Below are positions 241-54,338 of a DNA stretch of 64,000 bases, one piece after another (position 1 is the stretch's first letter; every line of letters begins with the position of its first letter). The stretch covers positions 18,655 through 82,654 of the forward strand of contig CAYUKZ010000002.1 in assembly GCA_964445515.1 (NCBI GenBank), in the 5' to 3' direction. The DNA is from an uncultured Mycoplasma sp. (lineage in GTDB: Bacteria; Bacillota_I; Bacilli_A; Mycoplasmatales; Hepatoplasmataceae). The notes under the pieces are model-generated. The model was given only the letters and a program-made list of their open reading frames with translations, did not search any database and had not been told where the DNA came from. Position numbers and translations under genes: made by a program.

Positions 241-2409
241 ATGAATACGGAAAAAAGAATTTGAATTGATAATAATGGTCAAAACCAAAACAATTCAAAC
301 GACAATCAAAATAATCCTTCAGGTGCAAACACTCCAACACCTAAGAAGTCTAGTGCTTCTAAATGAATATGAACAATATTAATTTTCATTTTAATCATTA
401 TACTTTTCTCAATGTTATTCTCAACAAAAATATTCGGAATGACATCAGCAACATTTGAGAAATTCTTAAATGACCCAACATGAATTCAAAAAGTTCAAAT
501 AACTGATAAAAGTGGTGCAGTTAACCTAAAGCAAATGCAATTAGGATTCTATGTTACTTCAGCAGGTCCAGTACTAACATTCGTTGGTCACTCTGCTAAT
601 TCAGGAAAAGGTTCTATAACTTATAGAGTATGATTTGATTCATTCTCAGATTATGATACATTTATGTCAGCTAATGAAGCAGGACTACTTTCATTATTCG
701 GACCAAACTTTGTTATTACTGAAATAAGTAATACAGTTAGTCCATTCTGACAATTAGTATTTGGTTTATTACCATGAGTTATCTTACTAGGTGGAACATA
801 TTGAATCATGATGCTTATGATGAAGAAACAAGGTTCAATGGGACAAATGAACTCAGGTTCATTAGTGCCTCAAAGATCAAACATCAAGTTTGATGATGTT
901 GCAGGTTACGATGAAGTTAAGGCTGAACTATGAGAAATTGTAGATTTCCTTAAAAATCCAGAGAAATATAATGCAGTGGGAGCAAGAACTCCTAAAGGAG
1001 TATTACTATCAGGTCCTCCAGGAACTGGTAAAACATTCTTTGCTAAAGCTGTAGCTGGAGAAGCAAACATTCCATTCTATTCAATTTCAGGTTCTGACTT
1101 TGTAGAGATGTTCGTTGGAGTAGGAGCTAAAAGAGTAAGAGAATTATTCGGAGTAGCTAAACAAACAGCACCAGCATTAATATTCATTGATGAGCTTGAC
1201 GCTGTTGGTAGACAACGTGGAGCCGGAATGGGTGGAGGACATGACGAAAGAGAACAAACTCTTAACCAAATGTTAGTTGAAATGGATGGTTTTGCAGCAA
1301 ACACAGGAATTGTTGTTATGGCTGCTACAAATAGACCTGACGTTTTAGACCCAGCTTTAAAAAGACCAGGTAGATTTGATAGATCTATTGAATTTAGAAT
1401 GCCAGATATTCTTGAAAGAAAAGCAATTCTTGAAATCTATGCAAAACAAGGTGGTAAGAAATTTGCTGCTGATGTTGATTGAGATAATGTCGCAGGAAGA
1501 ACTCCAGGGTTCTCTGCTGCTCAATTAGAAAACGTTGTTAATGAAGCGGCAATCTTATCTATAAGATTAAAGAGAAAAGAAATTTCTCTAGATATTATTG
1601 ATGAAGCTATTGATAGAGTAATCGGTGGACCATCTAAATCAAATAACTTAATGTCTCAAGAAGAGAAAGAGTTAATTGCTTACCATGAAGCAGGTCATGC
1701 ACTTATTGGTCTTGCTTTACCTGAAGGTGAGAAAGTACAAAAGATTACAATTATCCCTAGAGGACAAGCTGGTGGTTATGTATTAATGACACCTAAGAAA
1801 GAAAAATTTGTACAAACAAAAGCTGAACTTGAAGCTAAGATATCTTCATACATGGCTGGTAGAGCTGCTGAAGAAATTTACTTCGGTAAAGAAAATGTAA
1901 CAACAGGTGCATATTCAGATATTGAATCAGCAACTCAAATAGCTAGAAGAATGGTTACTGAGTTCGGAATGTCAGATCTTGGACCAATCCAATATGAAAA
2001 ACCTCAAGGAAGTATTTTCTTAGGTAGAGATTATGGAAATTCATCTAAGAACTATTCTGGACAGTTAGCTGTTGAAATTGATGGTGAAGTAAGAAAGTTA
2101 ATTGATGGCGGTTATAAACAAGCAATGACATTAATTAAAGCTAATAGAAACATTATGGATTTATTAGCAGAGTCACTTCTAATCAAAGAAACACTTACAG
2201 CAGAAGAAGCAGAGTTTATTTATGAAAATAAAAAACTTCCTGAACAAGTTCAAACAATGAAGAAACAATCATCTTCTAAACCTAAAACAACTAAGTCTAC
2301 AAAGACAACAAGTAAAACAACAACAAAAACTACAGCTAAGTCAACAACAAAAACTACACCAAAGAAAACTACAAAACCTAAAGTAGAAGACAAAGCTTTA
2401 AATAAATAA
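241..2409 (+). CDS. ftsH: ATP-dependent zinc metalloprotease FtsH
   Basis: Track ORFs 976-1482 and 1651-2409, plus the 241-975 segment, share one frame with only TGA interruptions (checked codon by codon). Two N-terminal hydrophobic segments, Walker A GPPGTGKT, Walker B LIFIDELD, zinc site HEAGHA. RBS GGAGGAAG before ATG 241. K/T-rich C-terminal tail. Confidence 0.95.
2266..2409 (+). repeat. low-complexity K/T-rich tail coding region of ftsH
   Basis: Encodes [38 protein letters not shown]. Imperfect ACAACAAAAACTACA-type nucleotide reiterations. Confidence 0.7.
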
Positions 2410-2491: not shown

Positions 2492-3565
2492 ATGAAAGCA
2501 TTATTCCCTGGATCATTTGATCCTATTCACAATGGACATGTAGAAGTTATTAAAGCAGCCGCTGAGAAATTTGAGCGTCTGTATATTTTTGTTGCTTCTA
2601 ATGAGACTAAAAACCACGTTAGAACATTAAAGTTTAGAACTCAACTAGTTCAAAAAGTTATTGACTCATTAGAGTTAGATAATGTTATTGTAATTCAACA
2701 ACAACCTGGGACATTAACTCCAAAGGTTGCTGAAAAACTAGATGTTGAAGTTATAGTAAGAGGAATAAGAGGATATGAAAATAAAGAGGAGAAGAATTAT
2801 GAAGCTTCTCTTGCTGAATCATATTTAGATGTTAATCCAAAACTTTCATTCGAATACTTCATCGTTGAATATCTTAACATTTCTTCATCAGAGGTAAATG
2901 AAGCTATAAAGAAATTTAACTCTATCAAAGAAATGGTTCCTGAGGTAGTAGAAAAAGATATTTTATTAGAATGTTTTGAACCAAGTAAAAAGAAAAAAGG
3001 TAAATTAGTAATTTTCTGTGGCCCTTCAGGTTCAGGTAAAGGAACAGTATCAAAAGAATTCTTATCAATACCTGAATTTGACTTCCATTTTTCAGTTTCT
3101 GCAACAACTAGAGAAATGAGAGAAGGAGAAGTTGATGGAGTTCACTATTTCTTCTTGACAAAAGAAGAATTTGAATTGTGAATTCAAGAAGATAAGTTTT
3201 ATGAATATGCAGAATTTGCTGGAAACTACTATGGGACACCTATAGCACCAGTAATGAAGATGTTAGAAAAAGGACAAAACGTTTTCCTTGAAATAGAATA
3301 CCAAGGAGTAGAACAACTAATTAAAAAAGCACCAGATGCTTTAACTATATTCTTGTCTCCTCCTTCAATAGAAGAGTTAGAAAGAAGATTAATTGAAAGA
3401 GGAACAGAAACTGAGCAGTCTTTAAAAGAAAGAGTAGAAACTGCAAGGCATGAAATCAAACTAGCAGATGACAAATACTTATTTAAGTATAAAGTAGTTA
3501 ATGAAAATGTTAGTGAAGCCGCAAATGAGATAATTGAAATATTAAGGAGAGAACTATATGTATAA
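2492..3565 (+). CDS. gmk: fusion protein: phosphopantetheine adenylyltransferase-like (CoaD) domain + guanylate kinase
   Basis: One 357-codon frame with a single in-frame TGA at 3179-3181. The N-half [12 protein letters not shown]...VRGIRG...ISSSEV matches CoaD landmarks (PGTFDPITNGH, RGLR, ISSS). The C-half [10 protein letters not shown]...SATTR...[12 protein letters not shown]...ERGTE is guanylate kinase. No start codon or RBS at the junction. Confidence 0.8.
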
Positions 3566-10312: not shown

Positions 10313-10687
10313 ATGGCTAAAAGATCAAGACAACAAAGACAATCTAACGTACATAACTCTGCAAGAAGAGTTAGAACAGAAAGAAACCAACTTACTGACC
10401 TAGTTATTCATGGACAATTAGTAACTACTCATGCAAAAGCTAAAGAGTTACAAAAGAAAATGGATAAACTAATTACTTGAGCTAAAAAAGATACTGTTCA
10501 AGCAAGAAGAGAAGTTGCCAAAGTTCTAAGACACGTTAACATTACTGAAAAACAAGACGCAGTTCAAAAATTATTTGCTGATATTGCACCAAAGTACAAA
10601 GAAAGAAATGGTGGATACACAAGAGTATTAAAATATGGGCACAGAAAAGGTGATGCTTCACCAATTTCAATAATTGCATTTGTTTAA
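10313..10687 (+). CDS. rplQ: 50S ribosomal protein L17
   Basis: ...LVIHGQLVTTHAKAKELQKKMDKLITWAK...ERNGGYTRVLKYGHRKGD. One in-frame TGA. Confidence 0.9.
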
Positions 10688-10693
10688 TAAACA

Positions 10694-10720
10694 AAAACAC
10701 CCTAAAAGGGGTGTTTTTTT
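10694..10720 (+). terminator. rho-independent terminator after rplQ
   Basis: ACACCC-TAAAAG-GGGTGT followed by T7. Confidence 0.8.
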
Positions 10721-10773: not shown

Positions 10774-10821
10774 ATATTCATAGCCTTTCCCAAAAAAAAA
10801 AAAAAAAAAAAAAATGAATAT
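10774..10821. promoter_or_regulatory. 8-nt inverted repeat ATATTCAT / ATGAATAT bracketing a C-rich block and the poly(A) tract
   Basis: ATATTCAT at 10774-10781 and its reverse complement ATGAATAT at 10814-10821. Between them lies AGCCTTTCCC plus the A-run. Confidence 0.5.
10792..10814 (+). repeat. homopolymeric poly(A) tract, 23 nt
   Basis: Counted directly as 9+10+4 A. It ends 20 nt upstream of TATAAT (10835-10840), so it occupies the -35/UP-element zone of the putative promoter of the surface-protein operon. No other homopolymer I noticed in the window exceeds about 8 nt. Confidence 0.95.
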
Positions 10822-10834
10822 CGAAAAAAAGTAT

Positions 10835-10840
10835 TATAAT
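10835..10840 (+). promoter_or_regulatory. putative -10 box (TATAAT) of the surface-protein operon
   Basis: Only canonical -10 hexamer between the rplQ terminator and ATG 10928. An RBS-like AAGGA at 10913-10917 precedes the ATG. Confidence 0.45.
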
Positions 10841-10927
10841 TTATATGAGTGAAATTTTAGGCCTAAACGGTCTATTTATTCTACGTATCGTATATAAATA
10901 TATGAATTAAATAAGGATCTTAAAATT

Positions 10928-13900
10928 ATGAAGAATAACAAGAGAAGAATAATCAGAAAAACCTTAAACTTGACCCTACCAATAGTAGCGGTAGTTTTAT
11001 TCTTCCCTTCTGTTATTAATTTAACTAAAACAAAAGGTCAAATTGCTTATAATCAAATCCAAGAATCTAAATTAGAAGATGAAAAAGCAAATGGATCAAC
11101 TAGAATACAAGCAACTAATTATCCAATGTATGGTAAAACTGACGGGGGAAATGCTAACTGAGTTAGGATAAACAGTTTTAGAGAAGGGAATATTAATAAA
11201 GGTAGAGCCGATTATGGTTATTGAAAGAGACCTGCTTATTCTGCTTCTTTAAGTAGAGACCCTGCATGGTATGATTTCTATAGATATGATGATGCGAAAG
11301 GAAAAGAAGTTTCTTTCAAAGATGAACACAATGTTGAACTTAGAGGTCTTTACTTCAACAAAGATAGTAATTACTGAAATCATTCAAACAATATTGATGA
11401 AATAGCCAATCAAGTATTAAGTGAGCATTCTGCAAAAGAAAATGCCTATTCTATTCATCCATCAACAAGTTGAGTAGATACAAGAGGTCAAAATTCTAAT
11501 TACTTTTTCTATGCCAATTTAGGAGTTGGTGTAGCTGAAGAAGAATGAGTAGATCCAAAAGTTCAAGCTTCTTCTGAACATAATAAGAAACATGGAATTA
11601 GTTGATTAACAAACTATTTTAAATTGAAGTATTCAACAGAGTATAAAGTAGCATATGATGATTTAGATGGGTTTAATTCTAAAAACAATTTCACATTTGA
11701 AACTCCTACTCTATTAGATCTTCAATTAGGAACTCCAGTAATTCAACCTGGCGTTAATGATGTTTACATTGAAATTCCTTATACAACTGGAGTTGAAGGT
11801 TTAAAAGGTGACGGTTCAAATTATAATAAACAAGATTCTTATGTAATACCAGTAGAATATTGAGATATTTTATTCGATGCTTCTGGTACATCTTTTAATA
11901 TGTCAAATATGGAAGCCAACCAAGATGTGGATAACCAGAAATTTATTGTGACAGTTAAAAACCTTGAGCAAGCAACTGATTATAATGATTGAAAATTATC
12001 AGGAATGAGTTATTGAAATGGTTCAAAGAAAGTTTCATTACCAGATCTTGAATTCGGTCCATTACATACTAATGGTATGGCTGATGAAGCTACTCTTAAA
12101 TCATGAGATTCATCAACTACAAAACATACAGCTGATATAAATTATGTACTAGATCTTGAGAATGTAGCTAATTCTACTTATCAAGATGATCCTTTCGCAT
12201 GAAAAGTAGAAATTGATGATGGACATGGTAATGTTCTTGCATCTGAAAAATCAGATGGTACAACTTCATTAGAAACAGGAACACTTACAGTAAATGAAGT
12301 TGAATCAACTCCATTACAAGCCGGAAGAACATATAATTGAAAATTAAAAGTATATGGTGATAGGTATAACCCTAGCAACTTTACTTCTACAGATATTGAA
12401 GTAACTACAAAACCATTAGATAACGCAGAAGCACCAGATTTCTCAACTTTAAAAACAGATTGAAGAAACATTGGTAAGCACTCTGCTACTTTAGACTATT
12501 CATTCGACATGAATACTTATGACATTAACCCTGCATTAGCAGATAATGAAAATAGTACTGTTGATTCAGTTTATTTAACTAGCAATAATATCTCCTATAC
12601 AGTTAATTCTTCTGTAAGTACACCAAATATGGTTGATAATGGAGATGGGACTAAAACATATTCAGGAACTATAGATTTAACAGATTTAGATCCAAATATA
12701 ACATATGATTTAGCATTGAGTGTAGATTGAAAATCAAATAGTTGACCTGATTTTAAAACATCTTCAAATGAAGTGCCTTCATTTGATACCGAAAATTGAG
12801 ATGCTCCTGAAGCACCTGAAATTTCATTAAATGAAAAAACAGATTCTGTTAACCCAGAAGGTTTTATTGTTCAAGGAAACTTTGATGGAACAAGTTATGA
12901 TCCAGTAAATCAATTACCAACAAACATCGATTCAATTAACTTAATGTATTCACTAAAAGGTGATGAAAGTAATCCTATTGAAACACTAACAAAAACATTC
13001 TCTTCAGATACTAATTCATGAAATGGAGAATATGAAATCAAAAATCTACAACCTAGCACTGAATATTCTGTTTGAACAGAAGTAACATATTCAGCTAAAG
13101 GTTCATCAGATTTCGATGGATTAAAAGAAAAATCTTCAGTTATTAATATCACTACTGATGCATATGAAAAAGTACAAATTAGTGATTTCCAATGAACAGC
13201 TAATACATCAAAACCTTCACAAGGTCAATTTGATATTAAAGTAACATCTGGACATGTTGGAGATAACTGATATAACCCAGTTGTTGATGAAAACTCAATT
13301 ATTGTTAAAGATAGCGAAGGTAAGAGATTGAATGCTACTTATGTAAGTAATTCAAAAACAGAAGGTACATATACATATAAATTAAAAGAGTTGCAAGGTG
13401 GAAAAACATATAATGATGTAACTGTAAGTCTTAACTCAAATGAGATTAAAACATCATTTACTACAGCAGATTTATTAGCACCTAAAGCGCCTATAATTAC
13501 TGAACCAACTGTTTCAGGAATAACACAAACATCAGCAGATGTTAAATATTCATTCACTGCACAAAGTGGTAGTTCATTAGATTACTTGCCAACTAAAGTT
13601 GAAAAAGTAGAACTAATAGATTCTAAAACTTCAAATGTATTATCAACAGCGTCTGATACTTCAGAAAGTGGAACTTTCAAATTATCAGGATTAGAAATTG
13701 AAAAAGAATACACTGTTAAAGTAAGAGTTACATATTCAGGTGGATTAACTGAAGAAAGTACTGAATTAACATTCAATACTAGCGACTTCAAACCAGCTCA
13801 AGCTCCTACTATAAATATATTAGAAGAAAATGAAGCTGGTACTACTCAAACAGAGATTCAAGCTCACTATAAAATTACTGTACCTAACAAATCTGGATAC

Positions 13901-15193
13901 AACCCAACAAAAATTACTTCAATCACTGCTAAAATTGATGGAGCAAATGAACAAATTCTAGATCCTACAACTCTTGAAGGAGATGTTACATTCACAGGTC
14001 TAGAAGGTGGAACTACACATGATATTTCATTAATAGTAGTATGAGATGATTCAGTAGATCCAATCTCAGGAGTTACTCCAGTAGAAAGAACTGAAAGTAT
14101 TTCAACTAAAGCTAAAGATGATGCAAAAGAACCATCAATACAAATACTTAAAGTATCTAACATTCAGCAAAATACAGCAGATATCGATTACGTAGTTAGC
14201 ATACCTCAAGGAAGTCCCACAGTTGATCCAACTGTTGTTACAAGAATTGACGTGTTAATTAATGATGTTGTTCAATCTACAGTAAATAATCCTTCACCAG
14301 TAAAAGGTGAGTATAAAGGTAAATTTGAAGCAACAGGTTTAGCTGCAGAAACTGATCAAACAGTGAAAATTAATGTTTACTACTTAGACGAATCTGGAAT
14401 AGAAGTACCTACACCTATTTCTAAAACTAAAGATTTCACAACTTTAAATAAAGATGAATCTAAAGAACCTGCTGTATCAATTAAGAATACTTCAGTAAGT
14501 TCTTCATGAGCTGAATTCTCAGCAGAAGTTACATTACCAGCACATGATGATAATGTTTATGATATTAATATTGTAAGTTATTCAATCATTAAATCAGGAA
14601 TTGAATATTCTTCAGGAGATTTAACATCAATTAACTTTGAAATGGGTAAAAAGACATCATTCACATTCCAAATTGATGGGTTAGCAGAAGTTAAGACATA
14701 TAGCGACTTCTCATTAAAACTTAATTATGAAGATGAGAAAGGTAATGTTCAAACACCAATTACAAGTGATGTTCCAAAATTCACTACAAAATCAATTGAT
14801 GATGTAGTTGTAACAAAATCAGTATTAGAAGAGGATGAGTTATCTATTGGTTTAGATAAACAAACTACTTCAATAGATGAAGTAAGAATCTTAGGAACAA
14901 ATTCTAATGGAGAACAAACTTCACTAGATTATGAAATTACTTCAGTAATTGAACATTCTAGATGAACAGAATATACTGTTGATCTAAACTTAGATAATGA
15001 GTATCAATCATTATCATTAGAAGTTAATGGAGAAGTCCAAAAACTAAATCTAATTGACGAAAGCGGAAACGTTATAAATTCAATTGGTTCAAATAACAAT
15101 TCGATTGCAAAAACAACAGCTATTGTAACACTAGTTATAGTACTTGCAGTTACAGCAACAGGAACGATTGTATATTTAACAAAAAAGAAATAA
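10928..15193 (+). CDS. giant membrane-anchored surface protein A (1421 aa): signal/anchor + aromatic-rich N-domain + ~10 FN3/Ig-like beta-sandwich modules + C-terminal TM anchor
   Basis: Six track ORFs plus the gaps form a single frame with no TAA/TAG (checked codon by codon) and many TGA. N-terminus is KRRIIRKTLNLTLPIVAVVLFFPSV with no Cys lipobox. Recurrent ~95-100-aa modules end in FN3-like strands (NLQPSTEYSVWTEVTYS, LSGLEIEKEYTVKVRVTYS, FTGLEGGTTHDISLIVVW, DLDPNITYDLALSVDW, LQAGRTYNWKLKVYG). C-terminus is TTAIVTLVIVLAVTATGTIVYLTKKK*. Confidence 0.85.
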
Positions 15194-15205: not shown

Positions 15206-18200
15206 ATGAAACTAAAAAGAGCATATAAAAAACCTATAATGATAACAGCAATTTCAATAATTGCTATTTTAGGTTTGAATAGTGTGCAACAAGTCAACAA
15301 CGGAATACAAAACACTGTTCTTGACAGAAACTTAGTTAATTCACAAGCGGCTTCATCAACTCCTAAAGACTTACATGGTCAAGAAATCAAAGATATAGCT
15401 ATGAATGACAAAGAAACATTTGTTATATTTACAGATATCGATGGAACTCAAGCGGTAATGCATTGAGGAGTAAATGAAGGATATGAAAGATCTCAAAAAT
15501 TAGCTATCCCTGTAGAAGAAGGGGATACAATAACTAATGTATATGCTGACTTTGGCGTTGCATTTGCTGTTGTGTTAAAAGCTGATGGAACAAATTCAGT
15601 TTATGGATATGGAGATAACTCTCATAAACAAATTACACAAGGAACTGAAACTAATATCACAACTCCTACTCTAGTTAAAGAAGGAATTCAATTAAGTGAT
15701 ATTACAATTGACAGATACACTTCTTCAATATATTATGAAGAAGGTTCTGACCTTAAAGTATTATCACAAGGTGATAATAGATATTCAGGACTTGGAATTG
15801 CTGATAAAAAAGCAACAATAAATGAAACAACAGTAGCAGGAACAACATTAGTTAGCGCTGATGCTGGTTCTGCTCATACAGCAGTAGTACTTGATGGTGC
15901 TGCTGATGGAGTTTATACATGAGGATTAAACTCTAACGGACAAATTGGTAATGGTGTATTAACTCATCCAGAAGATGGTGGTATTTTACCAGTTAAAGTA
16001 GATGGATTAGATGACGCAGTAGAAGTTTATGCTGGTGGAAATAATACATTTGCAATTACACCAAATGGAAATACAGAAAAAATTTGAGGTTGAGGTTCAG
16101 GTACAAACTATGAACTAGGTACTCAAACTGTTAAGTCTGAAACAACACCTCTTGAATTAACTAAATTAGAAACAGTTATTGAAAATGGTAAAGCAGGTTC
16201 AAGTTGAGATGTTGTTAATATGTACTCTGGACAAGACTGAAGTGTAATGTTCATCGAAAGAGATGGAATTGTTGAGAGATATGTATGAGGAAACCAAAAA
16301 GATGGTAAGCTAGGTAATGGTGTTACAGATGATGTAAGTACAGATTTCACTATGAGTGAAGAGTTAACACCTAATGGAGACTTAATCAATAAAGATCAAT
16401 TCATTGCCTTTGATGGTAATAGTGATACTATCTTAAAATCATTAAGAGTAGATGACTTCTCAATCCTTGAAGGATTCGGAGCAAATACAAATGGAGCATT
16501 AAGCCCTAGAGGTGGAGCAACACCTGTTCCAAAAGCAACAAAGATTTATTCACAAGATCAATTATTAGTTACAGAAGTTAATAATGTTAAAGCATTAGAT
16601 GATAATTCATTTACATTTGATGTAGTTATGGATACAAATGTTGTTGATGCTGCATCTATGAACTTTGTTCTTAAAACTTCAAAAGATTCTAAACTAATGA
16701 CTGATACTAAAGTAACAGGAATTGATAGACAAGGAGATAAAACAGTTTTATCATTCTATCAAAAAACAAACTTCGTTAACAATGGTGGAAACACTGTTGG
16801 ATTCAAAGTATCTGTTGATGGAGGAAAGACATTCTTAAAAGAATTCAATGTTAAATATCAACTTTCTCCTTCTGAAGCAGCTACAGTAGTTGCTAGTGAT
16901 GCAACAAATGTTAGTTATAACTCAGCTGATATTAATTTTGAAATTTCTACAAGTAATTCATCACACAATGCAAACTCTACAGTAACAAAATGAGAAATAT
17001 TAGATGAAAAAGATAATGTAGTTTCATTTAAAGATATGAATTCAACTGAAGGAAAAATCTCTGTTACTCAATCAGTTGATAACTTAACTGCAGGAACAGA
17101 ATTCGCAGGTTGAAAAGTAAAAGTTTACTCTACATATGGAGATTCAGCTAGTCCACAACAAGCAATTGAGACGGCAAACATACCAACATTCAAAACATTA
17201 GACAAGAAGAATGTTCCGGCATTAACTGCAAATGACTTTGCAGCAGAATCATGAACTACTAACAAAACAGAAGCTTCATTAAAATATACAATTAAAGATT
17301 CAGCAGCAACAAAAGATACATTTGGATTAGATATTACAAATGTTAAACTTCTTGGTAATTGAACAAACAATGGATTGTCAGGTGGAGCAGTAAACATTGA
17401 TTCACAAGCGCCAGTTTTAAACTCAGCCAACGGATTATGAGAAGGTCAAATTAATTTAACTAACCTTTCTCCTGAAACAACATACAATAATCTTAAAGTA
17501 GAAGTATCTTACCAAAATAAAGATGCAGATTCGTCATTATTAAATCCTAGAAAGATAGAATATTCATTATCAGATTTAATTACTGAAGATTATAATGCTC
17601 CTTCAGAGCCTAAACTTACAATTACTGAAAAAGATTCTAACATTACATCATATTCATTTGATATTGATGTAACTGTTCCTACAGCAGATCCTGCTGTTTC
17701 AAGACAAACTAAGATTAAATCAGTTGATTACAGAACTAAGAGTGAAGGAGATTCATTTACAGCCTGAGAAAGTGCCGGAGATGTAACAGATCCTACAAAA
17801 GGATTTGCTTCAACAATCGAAATCAACAATGCTGTTGCAGAAACAGTTAATACTGTTGAAGTTAAAGTAACATATACTGATGTTGATAACATAGCAAAAC
17901 CAACGCCAGTAACAGAATCTATCGAGATTACAACAAAACCTAAAAACGATAATGTTGTTGGTCCTAATGTAACAGTTATGGAATCAGAAGAGACAGATAC
18001 AATTAATGTATTTAATCTAAAATTAGTTATTTCTGGATTAGAAGCTGACGAAGAGACAAAAGGAATTAATGTTGATAAAGCATATATCGATGTCTTTGAA
18101 GGTTCAGGTATAGATCATACTGGTACACCAGTTCAATCAGTTGAACTTACAGAAAATAAGGAAAATGAAGATTGAGAAAGTAATGTAACACTATCTCCAT

Positions 18201-19597
18201 CAACAACATATACTCTATGAGGTAGAGTAGAATGATCTTCAGGAAGTAATGTTGGTCAAACTTCTTGATCAGATTCTTCAAAAGAACTATCTAACGAAAG
18301 TAAAGATCCTTCAATAGAGCCAACAATTAATGTTGATCCATCTAAGGAACTATATTTAGGTTCAGATGGTCAATGACACTATAATGGATTCAATGTTGAT
18401 ATTCAAAATGATCCTCAACATCACTTAACAACAGTAACAAGTATAGAAGTTACACTAGATAGCAAGGCAATTTACACTGAAAAATTTGATAAACAACAAA
18501 CATCATTCGATGTTAATGCAATGTTCAGTAAAGATGCAACGGACTTTAATACAGAGTTACATAATCTTGCAATTGAAGTTAATTGAGTTTATAGAGAAGA
18601 AGGAAGTAGTAATACAAACAAGACTACTATCGGAAAAGCTGAAGATGTTAAACTAATCAAGTTAGAAGAATCTTCACAAGATCCAGAATTCAGAGTTGAA
18701 TACTCATCTGTTCAATCAGTTTCTTCAACTCAAGCATTAGTTTCATACAAAATTTCTAAGAAATACAAAAATGCTAATGACCTAGTAATTGATAACTCAA
18801 ACACTCAAATACTTATAGCAGGTAAAGAAGATAATACTCCATTTGCACCAGTAACAGTAGTTGATGGTTCAACAGGAATAGATCCATTCGAAGGTTCATT
18901 TATTATTGATAACCTAAAACCAGGAACAAATTATGAATTTGCCTTTATAGTTAAATATAAAGAGAAATATCCAAATTGAGCTCCTAACAATAATTATTTA
19001 TCAGATGATAAATATGAATTAGGTGTTAAAGAGCAAGGTAACAACTTACCAAACATTGTTTTAGTTGAAACACTAAAAGAAGATGAAATTGGACTAACAC
19101 AACCTAAAGTAGTATTTGATAGTTATGAAGATAACACTCTTAACACTAAGATATCATTATTCAATGCTCCTAATGTAGAAGCTTTATCTAAAGCTAAATT
19201 AAGAGTTAAAGAAGAAACTGGAGTTAAGGGATACGAAGGTAAGATAGTTGAAAAAGATATTTCATTCACAAAAGTTGGTTCTAACAACTCAAGAAACTCT
19301 TCTGCTTCAGATATGAAGCAAGATGAATACATAATGTCTATCAAAGATATTAAAAAAGATACACTTTACTCACAATGAGAGTTAGCATTAGATGGTGAGA
19401 ACTATTATACAATTAACTTAACTGATGAAGCAGGTAACATAGTTTACACTCCATCGGCTTTAAGTAATGTTAGAGAAATTAGTGGTATTTGAAGAATACT
19501 AGCATTGATTGGATTAGCACTTTCAATTGTATTCGGACTTACAACTGCATTATTCTCATGATTATTTGTGAGAGCTAAAAGAGGAGGAGATGAATAA
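15206..19597 (+). CDS. giant membrane-anchored surface protein B (1463 aa): signal + RCC1-like 7-blade propeller + ~10 FN3/Ig-like modules + C-terminal TM anchor
   Basis: Single frame checked codon by codon. Starts 12 nt after gene A, preceded by AAGGA. Signal-like N-terminus PIMITAISIIAILGL. RCC1-type blade motifs VYGYGDNSHKQITQG, VYTWGLNSNGQIGNG, KIWGWGSGTNYELGTQ, RYVWGNQKDGKLGNG. Downstream FN3-like strands NLSPETTYNNLKVEVSY, LKPGTNYEFAFIVKY, SPSTTYTLWGRVEW. C-terminus is WRILALIGLALSIVFGLTTALFSWLFVRAKRGGDE*. Confidence 0.85.
15386..16556 (+). other. RCC1-like beta-propeller region of protein B (approximate bounds)
   Basis: About seven repeats of 50-60 aa, each with a hydrophobic strand followed by (W/Y)G.(N/G/D)..G(Q/K/E)(L/I)G. 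Confidence 0.6.
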
Positions 19598-21342
19598 TGA
19601 AATTAAATAAAACAACAATTATCTCTTCTGTGTTCTTAGCACTAGCATTATCAATGCCAGCTGCTTCAATACAATCAACAGTTCAAACATTTAGTGATGA
19701 AAACATCATCCCAACTAGACACTCTGTTGATAAGATTAAATCTATTGAATTAGGTTCAGATTCATCTACAATAGTATTTGATTCACAAGATACTCTTCAT
19801 GAAGATGAAGTATTAACAGCAGGTTACGATCAAGCTGTATGAACAAGTTATGATGGGTTACAAACTCAAGATACATCAGGAATGTTAGGTAGAGGTGAAC
19901 CAGTTAAAAACAATTCATATGCTCAAAATATCGACTTCTATAATGACCAAAGAGGAGAAGGTAGTGATAGAACAGTTAACAGAATGGTTGTAGAACAAAT
20001 AGATGCTGGAGAAATATTCTCTGGAGCTATTGTTAGAGAATGAGATGAAGAATACCCAGATGGAATCCTTAGAGGATACATGTGAGGTGGAGATATCAAT
20101 AACGCAACTATTCCTGAATTAGAACCAAAATCTAGTTCAGCCAAAGGTGTTGATGATAATCAAGTCACTAAATCATATACAACTCCTGTCACAATCGATT
20201 TAGATGGTGACGGAAATGATGGTATGGAAGTTGAAGGTGAAATATCAGTTGGTTATGACCACGCCGTAGCTAAAGCCTATGATCCAAACGGAAACCTAAA
20301 TGGTGGAACACCATTACCAGGACAATTATTCACTTGAGGAAATAATGACTTCAGACAAACTGGAGCTGATTATGTAACAGGTGATTTAGCTGCTCCTTCA
20401 CTTATTCCAGATTCATACTTTGGTGATTTAACACCAGAGAGTGGTTCTGATGAAATAATGTTCAAAGATGTAGAGTATGGACTAAGAGATTCATTCGCTA
20501 TTGTTCACAATAGTAATGATGATAAAGACCATTTATTTGCATGAGGTAATAACGACAAAGGACAACTAGGATTATCAAGTGATAATATAGTTGCTAAACC
20601 AAAAGAAGTTGTATTACCAGGATTTGAAGGTGAAATGATCAAAGTTGTTGCAGCAAAACAAACAACATACTTACTAACAAAAGATAAAGATGGTGTGTAT
20701 GATGTTTGAGGTTGAGGAACAAATGATAAACAATCTTTAGGAACTAAAAAGAATGGTTCTGTAGTAAGTGCAAATGAAAGAATTACACCTACTAAACTAG
20801 ATGTAGTTGGAAACAACTCAAAAGATATTGGAGAAGACTACAAAATTACAGGTCTTTACTCTAACATGCTATCTTCAACAGTATTTGTTACTATGGAAGA
20901 TAGTAATGGAATGAATCATGCTATGTCATGAGGAGATAACTCTAATGGACAAATGGGGCAATGAGGATTCGGAGTCCAAACTTCAGCAACACCTAAAGAA
21001 CTAGACGTTAATAACGATGGTGTATTAGGTACTGAGAGTAAAATTAAAGAAATTTCAGTAGGTTCTGATGCCGTTGCAGCAATTTACGAAAGTAAAGATG
21101 GAACACAACAACAAGTTTACATGTGAGGAAACAACACAACTGGAATATTCGGTTGAGGTGATAAAAACTTAAATGATAAGTTAACTCCTTCATTAGTATG
21201 AACATACCAAGAAAGCAAGAATAACTCTAGCGGATTAGCATTTATACAAATACTTTCAATAGTATTCATGGTACTGGCACTAATATTAATATTAGCAACA
21301 GTCCTAATGTATAAATTATGAATGAAAGCTAGATATGAATAA
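19597..21342 (+). CDS. membrane-anchored RCC1-like propeller protein C (581 aa)
   Basis: The ATG overlaps the stop of gene B (TAATG). Frame checked line by line. Signal peptide ISSVFLALALSMPAAS with no lipobox Cys. Blade motifs YMWGGDINN, LFTWGNNDFRQTG, LFAWGNNDKGQLGLS, DVWGWGTNDKQSLGT, AMSWGDNSNGQMGQW, VYMWGNNTTGIFGWG. C-terminus is FIQILSIVFMVLALILILATVLMYKLWMKARYE*. Confidence 0.85.
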
Positions 21343-21369
21343 AGAATAGATTAATCTATTCTTTTTTTT
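21342..21369 (+). terminator. rho-independent terminator ending the surface-protein operon
   Basis: AGAATAGATTAATCTATTCT palindrome followed by T8, immediately after the stop of gene C. It is the first terminator-like structure after 10720. Confidence 0.8.
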
Positions 21370-41289: not shown

Positions 41290-41375
41290 GGAGGGGTAGT
41301 GAAGTCTGGCTAAACACGGGTGATTGTAGCTCATCTCCTTCGGGTTCGGGGGTTCGAATCCCTCCCCCTCCACCA
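41290..41375 (+). tRNA. tRNA-Tyr (anticodon GTA), long variable arm, CCA encoded
   Basis: Acceptor GGAGGGG/CCCCTCC, anticodon loop TTGTAGC, T-arm GGGGGTTCGAATCCCTC, 3' ACCA. Confidence 0.9.
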
Positions 41376-41380
41376 TTTAA

Positions 41381-41455
41381 TGGCCTGTAGCCAAGCGGTA
41401 AGGCACCTGGTTTTGGTCCAGGTATGCGAAGGTTCGAATCCTTCCAGGCCAGCCA
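41381..41455 (+). tRNA. tRNA-Gln (anticodon TTG), CCA encoded
   Basis: Acceptor TGGCCTG/CAGGCCA, anticodon stem-loop CCTGG-TTTTGGT-CCAGG, T-arm GAAGGTTCGAATCCTTC. Confidence 0.9.
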
Positions 41456-41462
41456 TTATTGT

Positions 41463-41538
<76 letters not shown>

Positions 41539-41544
41539 TTTTTT

Positions 41545-41631
41545 GCCCAGGTGGTGGAATTGGTAGACACGAGGGATTTAAGCTCCCTTGCTGGCAACAG
41601 CGTGAGGGTTCAAGTCCCTCTCTGGGCACCA
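41545..41631 (+). tRNA. tRNA-Leu (anticodon TAA), long variable arm, CCA encoded
   Basis: Acceptor GCCCAGG/TCTGGGC, anticodon stem-loop AGGGA-TTTAAGC-TCCCT, variable arm TGCTGGCAACAGCG, T-arm GAGGGTTCAAGTCCCTC. Confidence 0.9.
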
Positions 41632-54165: not shown

Positions 54166-54305
54166 TATAATTGAGAGGTAATAACTTAAGACAGTAGCTG
54201 TCAATGACATAAGTGCTACCGAGGTTTAGAAATTATATGTATTTATACATATGCTTTTAGACACACTTGGTAGTAAGTCAAATATATCCAGTGTGTCTTT
54301 TTATT
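54166..54305 (+). promoter_or_regulatory. extended -10 promoter (TGTTATAAT) plus ~125-nt three-hairpin leader ending in a strong terminator-like hairpin, 35 nt before rplK
   Basis: H1 is a long imperfect hairpin GGTA..ACTTAAGACAG-TAG-CTGTC..CATAAGT..TACC (about 54177-54220). H2 is ATATGTAT-TT-ATACATAT (54235-54252). H3 is AGACACAC(T)TGG-N17-CCAGTGTGTCT followed by TTTTATT (54259-54305). Confidence 0.55.
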
Positions 54306-54338
54306 ACAAAAAAGAAAAAAACAGAAGGAGAAAGAAAC

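Follow-up and report, generated by a model that had tools for sequence, protein, structure and literature searches.

A predicted surface protein with an RCC1-like propeller head and a Fn3-like stalk in a three-gene operon of an uncultured Hepatoplasmataceae mollicute

Within a 64,000-nucleotide (nt) stretch of DNA from an uncultured Mycoplasma sp. (GenBank assembly GCA_964445515.1, contig CAYUKZ010000002.1, positions 18,655 to 82,654 of the forward strand; hereafter the window), one gene encodes a protein of 1463 amino acids (aa) in which a seven-blade RCC1-like beta-propeller is followed by a stalk of about eight beta-sandwich modules and a single C-terminal transmembrane helix. This gene is the second of three consecutive genes, numbered here 1 to 3 (Table 1). 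Our preferred reading, to which we give a probability of roughly 0.55, is that the gene 2 product is a type-I surface protein. From the end of a spacer resembling fibronectin type III (Fn3) domains, its RCC1-like head would bind a ligand on the host or in the lumen, and the protein would be co-expressed, possibly in a phase-variable manner, with the two other heads of the operon. An original prediction, made before any database search, had proposed the propeller, its N-terminal position in a membrane-anchored protein and the modular stalk, and all three are borne out by the evidence below.

The head is supported by repeat motifs, sequence profiles and structure prediction. First, the RCC1 hallmark, aromatic-G-x-N/D-x-x-G-Q/K-L-G, recurs at seven sites (aa 87, 134, 188, 239, 296, 361 and 424), at intervals of 47-65 aa and far above chance, with degenerate forms in repeats 1, 3 and 7. 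The original prediction had placed the domain at 15386..16556, which corresponds to aa 61-450, and had quoted four peptides from it, all of which are present in the gene 2 protein (VYGYGDNSHKQITQG at aa 131, VYTWGLNSNGQIGNG at 236, KIWGWGSGTNYELGTQ at 292 and RYVWGNQKDGKLGNG at 358).

Second, the protein is matched by Pfam RCC1 (PF00415) with 63.8 bits (E=2e-17, gathering cut-off 21.7) and by RCC1_2 (PF13540) with 34.8 bits (cut-off 22); at 102 bits, the whole-domain model PF25390 stays under its cut-off of 150. Among PDB sequences searched with phmmer, UVR8 (1e-18) and human RCC1 (4e-14) come first, then HERC2, HERC1 and RPGR.

Third, an AlphaFold2 model of aa 32-553, computed from a 42-row alignment, reaches a mean predicted local distance difference test (pLDDT) score of 77 and a predicted template modelling (pTM) score of 0.74; within the propeller, the majority of 10-residue blocks lie at pLDDT 80-95. 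The model places seven four-stranded sheets across aa 60-448 and a beta-sandwich after them. When it was compared with the PDB by Foldseek, the best 49 matches were all solved RCC1-like domains; UVR8 was covered end to end, with a template modelling (TM) score of 0.84, a root mean square deviation of 3.2 Å and E=1e-21. Neither GWRHT, the chromophore motif of UVR8, nor WRH occurs in the gene 2 protein. Taken together, profiles, hallmark sites and modelling confirm aa 60-450 as a predicted seven-blade RCC1-like propeller.

The stalk below this head was likewise found to consist of beta-sandwich modules, as judged by an iterated hidden Markov model (HMM) of the module, by profile matches in the PDB and by a model of a single module. 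The module HMM gives a period of ~120 aa. A profile of 15 aligned modules from genes 1 and 2 has PDB matches that are almost all fibronectin type III (best E=2e-6), and an AlphaFold2 model of the module at aa 558-672 is a seven-strand sandwich with a pLDDT of 87. Foldseek similarity of a stalk module to Fn3 and immunoglobulin-like (Ig-like) domains is moderate (TM 0.4-0.57), and Ig-like domains of GH2 proteins match too; Pfam fn3 appears in gene 1 alone, at a sub-threshold 20.8 bits against a cut-off of 25. The stalk begins with one Ig-like module directly after the propeller, continues with six of Fn3-like type and ends in a divergent module close to the membrane; from typical Fn3 dimensions it would span ~30 nm if extended.

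Hydrophobic segments in the gene 2 protein are restricted to the N-terminal stretch and the helix at aa 1424-1457, the latter providing the membrane anchor that had been proposed. Cysteine is absent from all three operon proteins and from their three orthologs (described below). The gene 2 product is therefore not a lipoprotein, and a surface lipoprotein identity was ruled out for the operon proteins in general, which have no cysteine and so no lipobox.

The gene model depends on the genetic code, and here too the proposal of a wall-less host that reads TGA as tryptophan held, in codon usage as well as in phylogenetic placement. The window has a G+C content of 27-34% and uses genetic code 4, with in-frame TGA in the 42 genes checked and TGG almost never used. 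Under translation table 11, gene 2 is split into short open reading frames (ORFs), whereas code 4 yields a single frame of 1463 codons with 23 in-frame TGA codons for Trp, several at the conserved W of the RCC1 'WG' motifs. The RpoA protein encoded in the window shares 71% identity with its counterpart in Candidatus Tyloplasma litorale, 51-54% with those in Candidatus Hepatoplasma vulgare and scabrum and 38% with that in Mycoplasma todarodis, and many metagenomic relatives are nearer, at 73-87%. On account of these RpoA identities, the organism is placed as an uncultured member of the Hepatoplasmataceae, in a Tyloplasma-like clade. The family consists of symbionts of the crustacean gut and hepatopancreas (PMC10928387, PMC13264560).

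Gene 2 is maintained within its species. The exact protein is recorded in public assemblies (P0049), and its 90% cluster has four members. Our same-species comparison set comprised the window and three further independent 'gut metagenome' assemblies (L001-L003), among them GCA_019825985.1 with a 321-kilobase contig. The gene 2 frame is unbroken in all four assemblies, the three others differing from the window by 3-23 nt and 0-8 aa. Relative to the L001 allele, the ratio of non-synonymous to synonymous substitution rates (dN/dS) is 0.15 for gene 2, 0.23 for gene 1 and 0-0.02 for eight adjacent housekeeping genes, all from small counts. This indicates that genes 1 and 2 are under purifying selection, relaxed relative to core genes, and because the frame is intact in four assemblies and dN/dS is 0.15, we regard the gene as functional and maintained.

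The setting of gene 2, including the second RCC1 protein encoded by gene 3, went unmentioned in the original prediction. The stalks of genes 1 and 2 are paralogous (E=1e-21, ~20% identity), and the ~230-aa head of gene 1 has no Pfam match. Of the 13 amino acid changes that separate strains in gene 1, 6 are grouped at residues 454-509. Gene 3 scores 83.1 bits against Pfam RCC1, and its propeller is distantly related to that of gene 2 (27% over 149 aa). Its start codon overlaps the gene 2 stop by 1 nt (TAATG). Given this overlap, the 12-nt gap between genes 1 and 2, the ribosome-binding sites and the flanking hairpins, genes 1-3 are predicted to form a single transcription unit. The hairpin read as the operon terminator at its downstream end has too few G-C pairs for the terminator scanner that we used. 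A further small hairpin (TAGGCC-TAAAC-GGTCTA, then TTTATT; 10858-10874, plus strand) lies in the presumed 5′ leader, between the TATAAT box and the first start codon, and may be an attenuator or a chance match.

Table 1. Coordinates of the gene 2 protein segments, the operon genes and the candidate regulatory elements in the window
Feature	Position	Strand	Description
Hairpin, likely bidirectional terminator	10693..10718		Palindromic, GC-containing, flanked by A/T runs, just after rplQ; upstream operon edge
Poly(A) tract	10792..10814	+	23 nt; 20 nt upstream of TATAAT; within the 240-nt gap before gene 1
Candidate -10 box TATAAT	10835..10840	+	88 nt before the first start codon; read from sequence
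Gene 1	10928..15193	+	1421-aa predicted type-I surface protein; signal-like N terminus, ~230-aa head, ~10 Fn3-like modules, C-terminal transmembrane helix, then KKK
Gene 2	15206..19597	+	1463-aa protein; AAGGA ribosome-binding site in the 12-nt gap after the gene 1 stop
Gene 2, signal-peptide-like N terminus	15206..15295	+	aa 1-30; five basic residues, then a 14-15-residue hydrophobic stretch (segment aa 9-30); no Cys
Gene 2, predicted seven-blade RCC1-like beta-propeller	15383..16555	+	aa 60-450; Pfam, phmmer, AlphaFold2, Foldseek, hallmark sites
Gene 2, stalk	16556..19450	+	aa 451-1415; ~8 beta-sandwich modules, roughly 105-130 aa each
Gene 2, C-terminal transmembrane helix	19475..19576	+	aa 1424-1457, then short basic cytoplasmic tail RAKRGGDE
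Gene 3	19597..21342	+	581-aa protein; signal peptide, second RCC1-like propeller, C-terminal transmembrane helix, no stalk; GGAGG ribosome-binding site
Intrinsic terminator of the operon	21342..21369	+	9-base-pair stem AAGAATAGA/TCTATTCTT and T-run; read from sequence

Long homopolymer tracts are classic phase-variation switches in mycoplasmas, as in the vlp genes of M. hyorhinis, in which a poly(A) tract lies between the -35 and -10 elements. The poly(A) tract in front of the operon is the sole homopolymer of at least 11 nt in the 64-kilobase window. Its length differs elsewhere in the species, being 18 nt in L001 (11472-11489), 17 nt in L002 (11472-11488) and 17 nt in L003 (3165-3181). In a related species, the corresponding cluster (contig L011) has an A16 tract (1371-1386), its only long homopolymer, at the equivalent place, between TTGATT and TATAAT with a 21-nt spacer; in the window, the tract sits upstream of the -35 position and not inside the spacer. 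Logan contigs placed over the tract do not resolve length variation within a sample. We hypothesize that the tract is a candidate element for slipped-strand phase variation or for setting promoter strength.

An exhaustive search of 1.84 billion cluster representatives with the gene 2 protein returned 22,142 representatives at E<=0.001, of which 4,233 reach E<=1e-10, and all but one match aa ~60-400 only. The single exception, P0257, is a 1421-aa protein that is collinear with aa 55-825 of gene 2 (29% identity, E=2e-53) and has RCC1 Pfam hits. As P0257 and the gene 1 product have the same length, we considered whether P0257 corresponds to gene 1, the upstream paralog, and rejected this, the two sharing only 26% identity over stalk pieces. 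The P0257 contig, L011, comes from GCA_040777565.1, an assembly that also holds RpoA relatives at 84-87% identity. There, P0257 lies in a cluster of the same order as the operon in the window, between a 1716-aa protein without Pfam hits (L011 1406-6556) and a 578-aa RCC1 protein (L011 10825-12561). Gene 3 and its 578-aa ortholog are 31% identical (E=1e-71). Gene 1 and its 1716-aa ortholog match in the stalk only, at 28% identity, so that between the two species the gene 1 head seems to have been either replaced or altered past recognition. Between gene 2 and P0257, identity is 21-41% for the propeller blades, with most at 31-41%, as against 24% for the stalk modules; the gene 2 head is thus more constrained than its stalk, which fits a functional head on a spacer.

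The flanks of the cluster in GCA_040777565.1 differ from those in the window, with a Fic gene upstream. Because gene order is kept while the flanks differ, and because identities of 28-31% stand against 84-87% for RpoA, the three-gene unit is, as far as these two clusters allow comparison, conserved as a unit, changes its place in the genome and evolves much more rapidly in sequence than housekeeping genes do. In the window the operon follows rplQ; at that position it is absent from all five relatives inspected (L006-L010), Ca. Tyloplasma litorale included. What follows rpoA-rplQ in these five relatives is a 425-aa unknown protein with a tRNA synthetase gene, a DUF4011 helicase, uvrBA, an NMN transporter with recO, and fakA-plsX, and the rplQ junction resembles a breakpoint at which the clade has undergone repeated rearrangement. 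Two scans of species-representative genomes added no further case: the full gene 2 protein gave no match, with 8-mer patterns that reach close relatives only and the source genome either not in the set or masked, and an alignment of the two orthologs gave no mollicute among the best 80 matches, with a W-containing pattern that may miss TGA-encoded Trp.

Read depth suggests that the operon also varies among co-resident strains. Logan runs matching the window include SRR15291760 and SRR15291762, and depth was compared in runs labelled X1-X4. In X1, the gene 2 head has ~5000x word depth, equal to that of rpoA-rplQ. In X2-X4, rpoA-rplQ is at ~1800-2100x and the operon contig at ~230-250x, a ~9-fold drop at the rplQ terminator (10662-10720), and the high-depth Logan contigs of the major co-resident strain end at 10691. 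No second operon allele at >=80% identity was recovered from the X2 contigs. Most cells in X2-X4 seem to carry a different sequence after rplQ.

On the reading that we favour, a Sec-type signal would take the gene 2 chain across the single membrane and probably be cleaved, and the one C-terminal helix would anchor the protein. The roughly eight Fn3/Ig-like modules, presumably extended, would act as a spacer that holds the propeller away from the cell, and the propeller would be the ligand-binding head. Transcription from a promoter after the variable poly(A) tract to the terminator past gene 3 would co-express it with gene 1, which has an unrelated head on a paralogous stalk, and with gene 3, a propeller that has no stalk. 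The protein would serve to attach to, or to recognize, a ligand of host or luminal origin, for example at the brush border or in the glycocalyx, and rapid sequence turnover, possibly with phase-variable expression, would accompany it. Ligand or host binding by the propeller, which the original prediction had suggested, is a reasonable inference. Hepatoplasma has been described on the brush-border microvilli of the hepatopancreas, its mechanism of adhesion being unresolved (PMC13264560).

Several points weigh against this reading. An uncleaved N-terminal segment would tether the head at the membrane and loop the stalk, and the length differences of the poly(A) tract between assemblies could be homopolymer assembly error. 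The source runs are labelled just 'gut metagenome' as to the host animal, no RNA runs were found from which expression of the operon could be read, and no ligand is known for any mollicute RCC1-like protein.

The same architecture could serve a structural purpose, with dense, acidic, Cys-free stalks rich in Thr, Ser and Asn forming, together with the propellers, a protective coat or spacer layer that shields the wall-less cell from digestive enzymes or phages. Such a coat would account for the one architecture present in all three proteins with heads at different heights and for the acidic, Cys-free composition; the dominance of the organism in its sample, seen in the X1 depth, would fit an abundant structural product. 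We nevertheless consider it unlikely: the gene 2 head is better conserved than the stalk between species and the gene 1 head appears to be swapped on a conserved stalk, two patterns that point to specific functions for the heads, and no self-assembly motif was seen. A different geometry would result if the N-terminal segment acted as an uncleaved signal anchor, tethering both ends, with the propeller beside the membrane and the Fn3 array looped. Some mollicutes do not have signal peptidase I, the gene 2 protein has no canonical AXA motif after its hydrophobic stretch, and no Peptidase_S26 gene was seen in the loci inspected, a negative that covers only a small part of the genome. This arrangement is nonetheless improbable, since a stretch of 14-15 residues has the length of a signal peptide and is short for a stable transmembrane helix, and since cleavage-type ends of a more typical form, VAS|L and PAAS|I for instance, are found in the ortholog and in the neighbouring proteins.

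Two further alternatives concern what the propeller would do once exposed or delivered. Streptomyces BLIP-II is a secreted RCC1-like propeller that blocks beta-lactamase, and the gene 2 head, of the same fold class and predicted to lie outside the cell, might likewise neutralize a hydrolase of the host or of a competitor at the cell surface. RCC1-like domains are described, in a passage of Kawato et al. that cites Hadjebi 2008, as generic protein-interaction platforms, enzyme inhibition included (PMC10928387), which would accord with such a function. We hold this to be distinctly unlikely, as BLIP-II does not appear in the 50 best fold matches, there is no known target enzyme and an inhibitor would not need the long stalk. 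It is hardly credible that the protein is a eukaryote-like effector in the manner of Legionella LegG1, imitating RCC1 to act on Ran or a different small GTPase of the host. Only two matches, that to Pfam RCC1 and that of the fold to human RCC1, speak for this role, and the predicted topology counts it out, because the signal peptide, the 965-aa extracellular stalk and the C-terminal anchor would fix the head outside the cell. Further, the nearest relatives of the head are ordinary bacterial RCC1-family proteins and not eukaryotic ones, and no translocation system was seen. In addition, the family is considered ectosymbiotic, and for Hepatoplasma Kawato et al. likewise concluded against such a role (PMC10928387).

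The preferred reading, that of a ligand-binding head on a spacer, can be extended to the operon as a whole. The three-gene unit may be a conserved, rapidly diversifying, phase-variable host-attachment cassette of Tyloplasma-like Hepatoplasmataceae, whose propellers would bind the crustacean brush border; specificity for host or niche would then be determined by propeller turnover, which includes their presence in some co-resident strains and absence from others. This extension is possible, if on the doubtful side. If true, it would provide the first function for a mollicute RCC1-like domain and a molecular handle on symbiont attachment in a family that predominates in the digestive glands of isopods and other crustaceans and whose mode of attachment to microvilli is unresolved (PMC13264560). 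The gene 2 protein and its two operon partners are, in any case, concrete candidates for the microvillus interface of uncultured Hepatoplasmataceae.

Elsewhere in the window, a single 357-aa ORF (2492-3565, plus strand) fuses CTP_transf_like (CoaD-type) and guanylate kinase domains and is one gene in public assemblies too. FtsH (241-2409, plus strand) has a low-complexity Lys/Thr/Ser-rich C-terminal tail of ~60 aa and, at its N terminus, an extension rich in Asn and Gln. Four clustered tRNA genes (41290-41628, plus strand) and a ribosomal protein L10 leader upstream of rplJ (Rfam RF00557, 52 bits; 54167-54311, plus strand) are ordinary features.

Among known systems, the eukaryotic RCC1-like domains (UVR8, RCC1, the HERC2 RCC1-like domains and RPGR) have their fold in common with the gene 2 head, with TM scores of 0.6-0.7 for RCC1, HERC2 and RPGR beside the higher value for UVR8. 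They are only 16-21% identical to it, however, and the gene 2 head is predicted to be extracellular and membrane-anchored. The promoter region resembles those of the M. hyorhinis vlp type, in that mollicute surface genes are preceded by a long poly(A) tract beside the -10 box, its length differing between isolates. The operon proteins, by contrast, are predicted Cys-free type-I membrane proteins and not lipoproteins, the tract is upstream of the -35 position, and switching is here only a hypothesis.

Closer to the head in sequence are the generic bacterial RCC1-family proteins (COG5184-type, often fused to Big_2, Fn3, Calx-beta, RHS or SLH), which give its best matches, at 25-40% identity over the blades. 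When the head and the full protein served as queries in word-indexed searches, only the head was matched (22-37% identity), and the named hits were either bacterial, from the 'alpha-tubulin suppressor-like RCC1 family', or eukaryotic and of HERC type. Among the named matches of the exhaustive search, the best are ordinary bacterial proteins of the 'alpha-tubulin suppressor-like RCC1 family', Calx-beta and RHS kinds. In species-representative genomes, at least 368 loci were matched, in Paenibacillus, Myxococcota, Verrucomicrobiota, Actinomycetota, Bacteroidota and even archaea. These loci and the 22,142 representatives of the exhaustive search contradict the original prediction on one point, namely the premise that in bacteria RCC1-like domains occur in no more than a handful of effectors, Legionella LegG1 being one. 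Our finding leaves the general picture of these domains, which are common in bacteria, unchanged. Many of the generic bacterial proteins are large, secreted or surface-located and multi-domain, like the gene 2 protein, but the gene 2 stalk occurs in none of them, and they belong mostly to walled bacteria and use other anchoring modules.

The closest architecture is found within the family itself. Kawato et al. (2024) counted 7 RCC1-like proteins in Ca. Hepatoplasma crinochetorum and 10 in Ca. H. scabrum, mentioned none for Ca. Tyloplasma litorale, and proposed beta-sandwich and RCC1-like proteins as candidates for host interaction (PMC10928387); beyond that study, we found no paper tying RCC1 to mycoplasma surface proteins. 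One of these proteins, BDV02923.1 (HCTKY_2170, Ca. Hepatoplasma crinochetorum, 991 aa), was modelled with an N-terminal seven-blade propeller and four Ig-like folds (PMC10928387). This weakens the claim that the combination is unusual for a wall-less bacterium. No Hepatoplasma protein is among the listed matches of our sequence searches with gene 2, and the likeness to BDV02923.1 is one of architecture and not of compared sequence, with 1463 against 991 aa and ~8 against four modules. The Hepatoplasma proteins belong to the same family, have several copies per genome and no known function, and share with gene 2 the class in which a propeller precedes Ig-like modules; the operon context and the poly(A) tract are seen here and are not described for them in PMC10928387. 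The gene 2 protein is a new, longer and very divergent case of an architecture already noted in the Hepatoplasmataceae.

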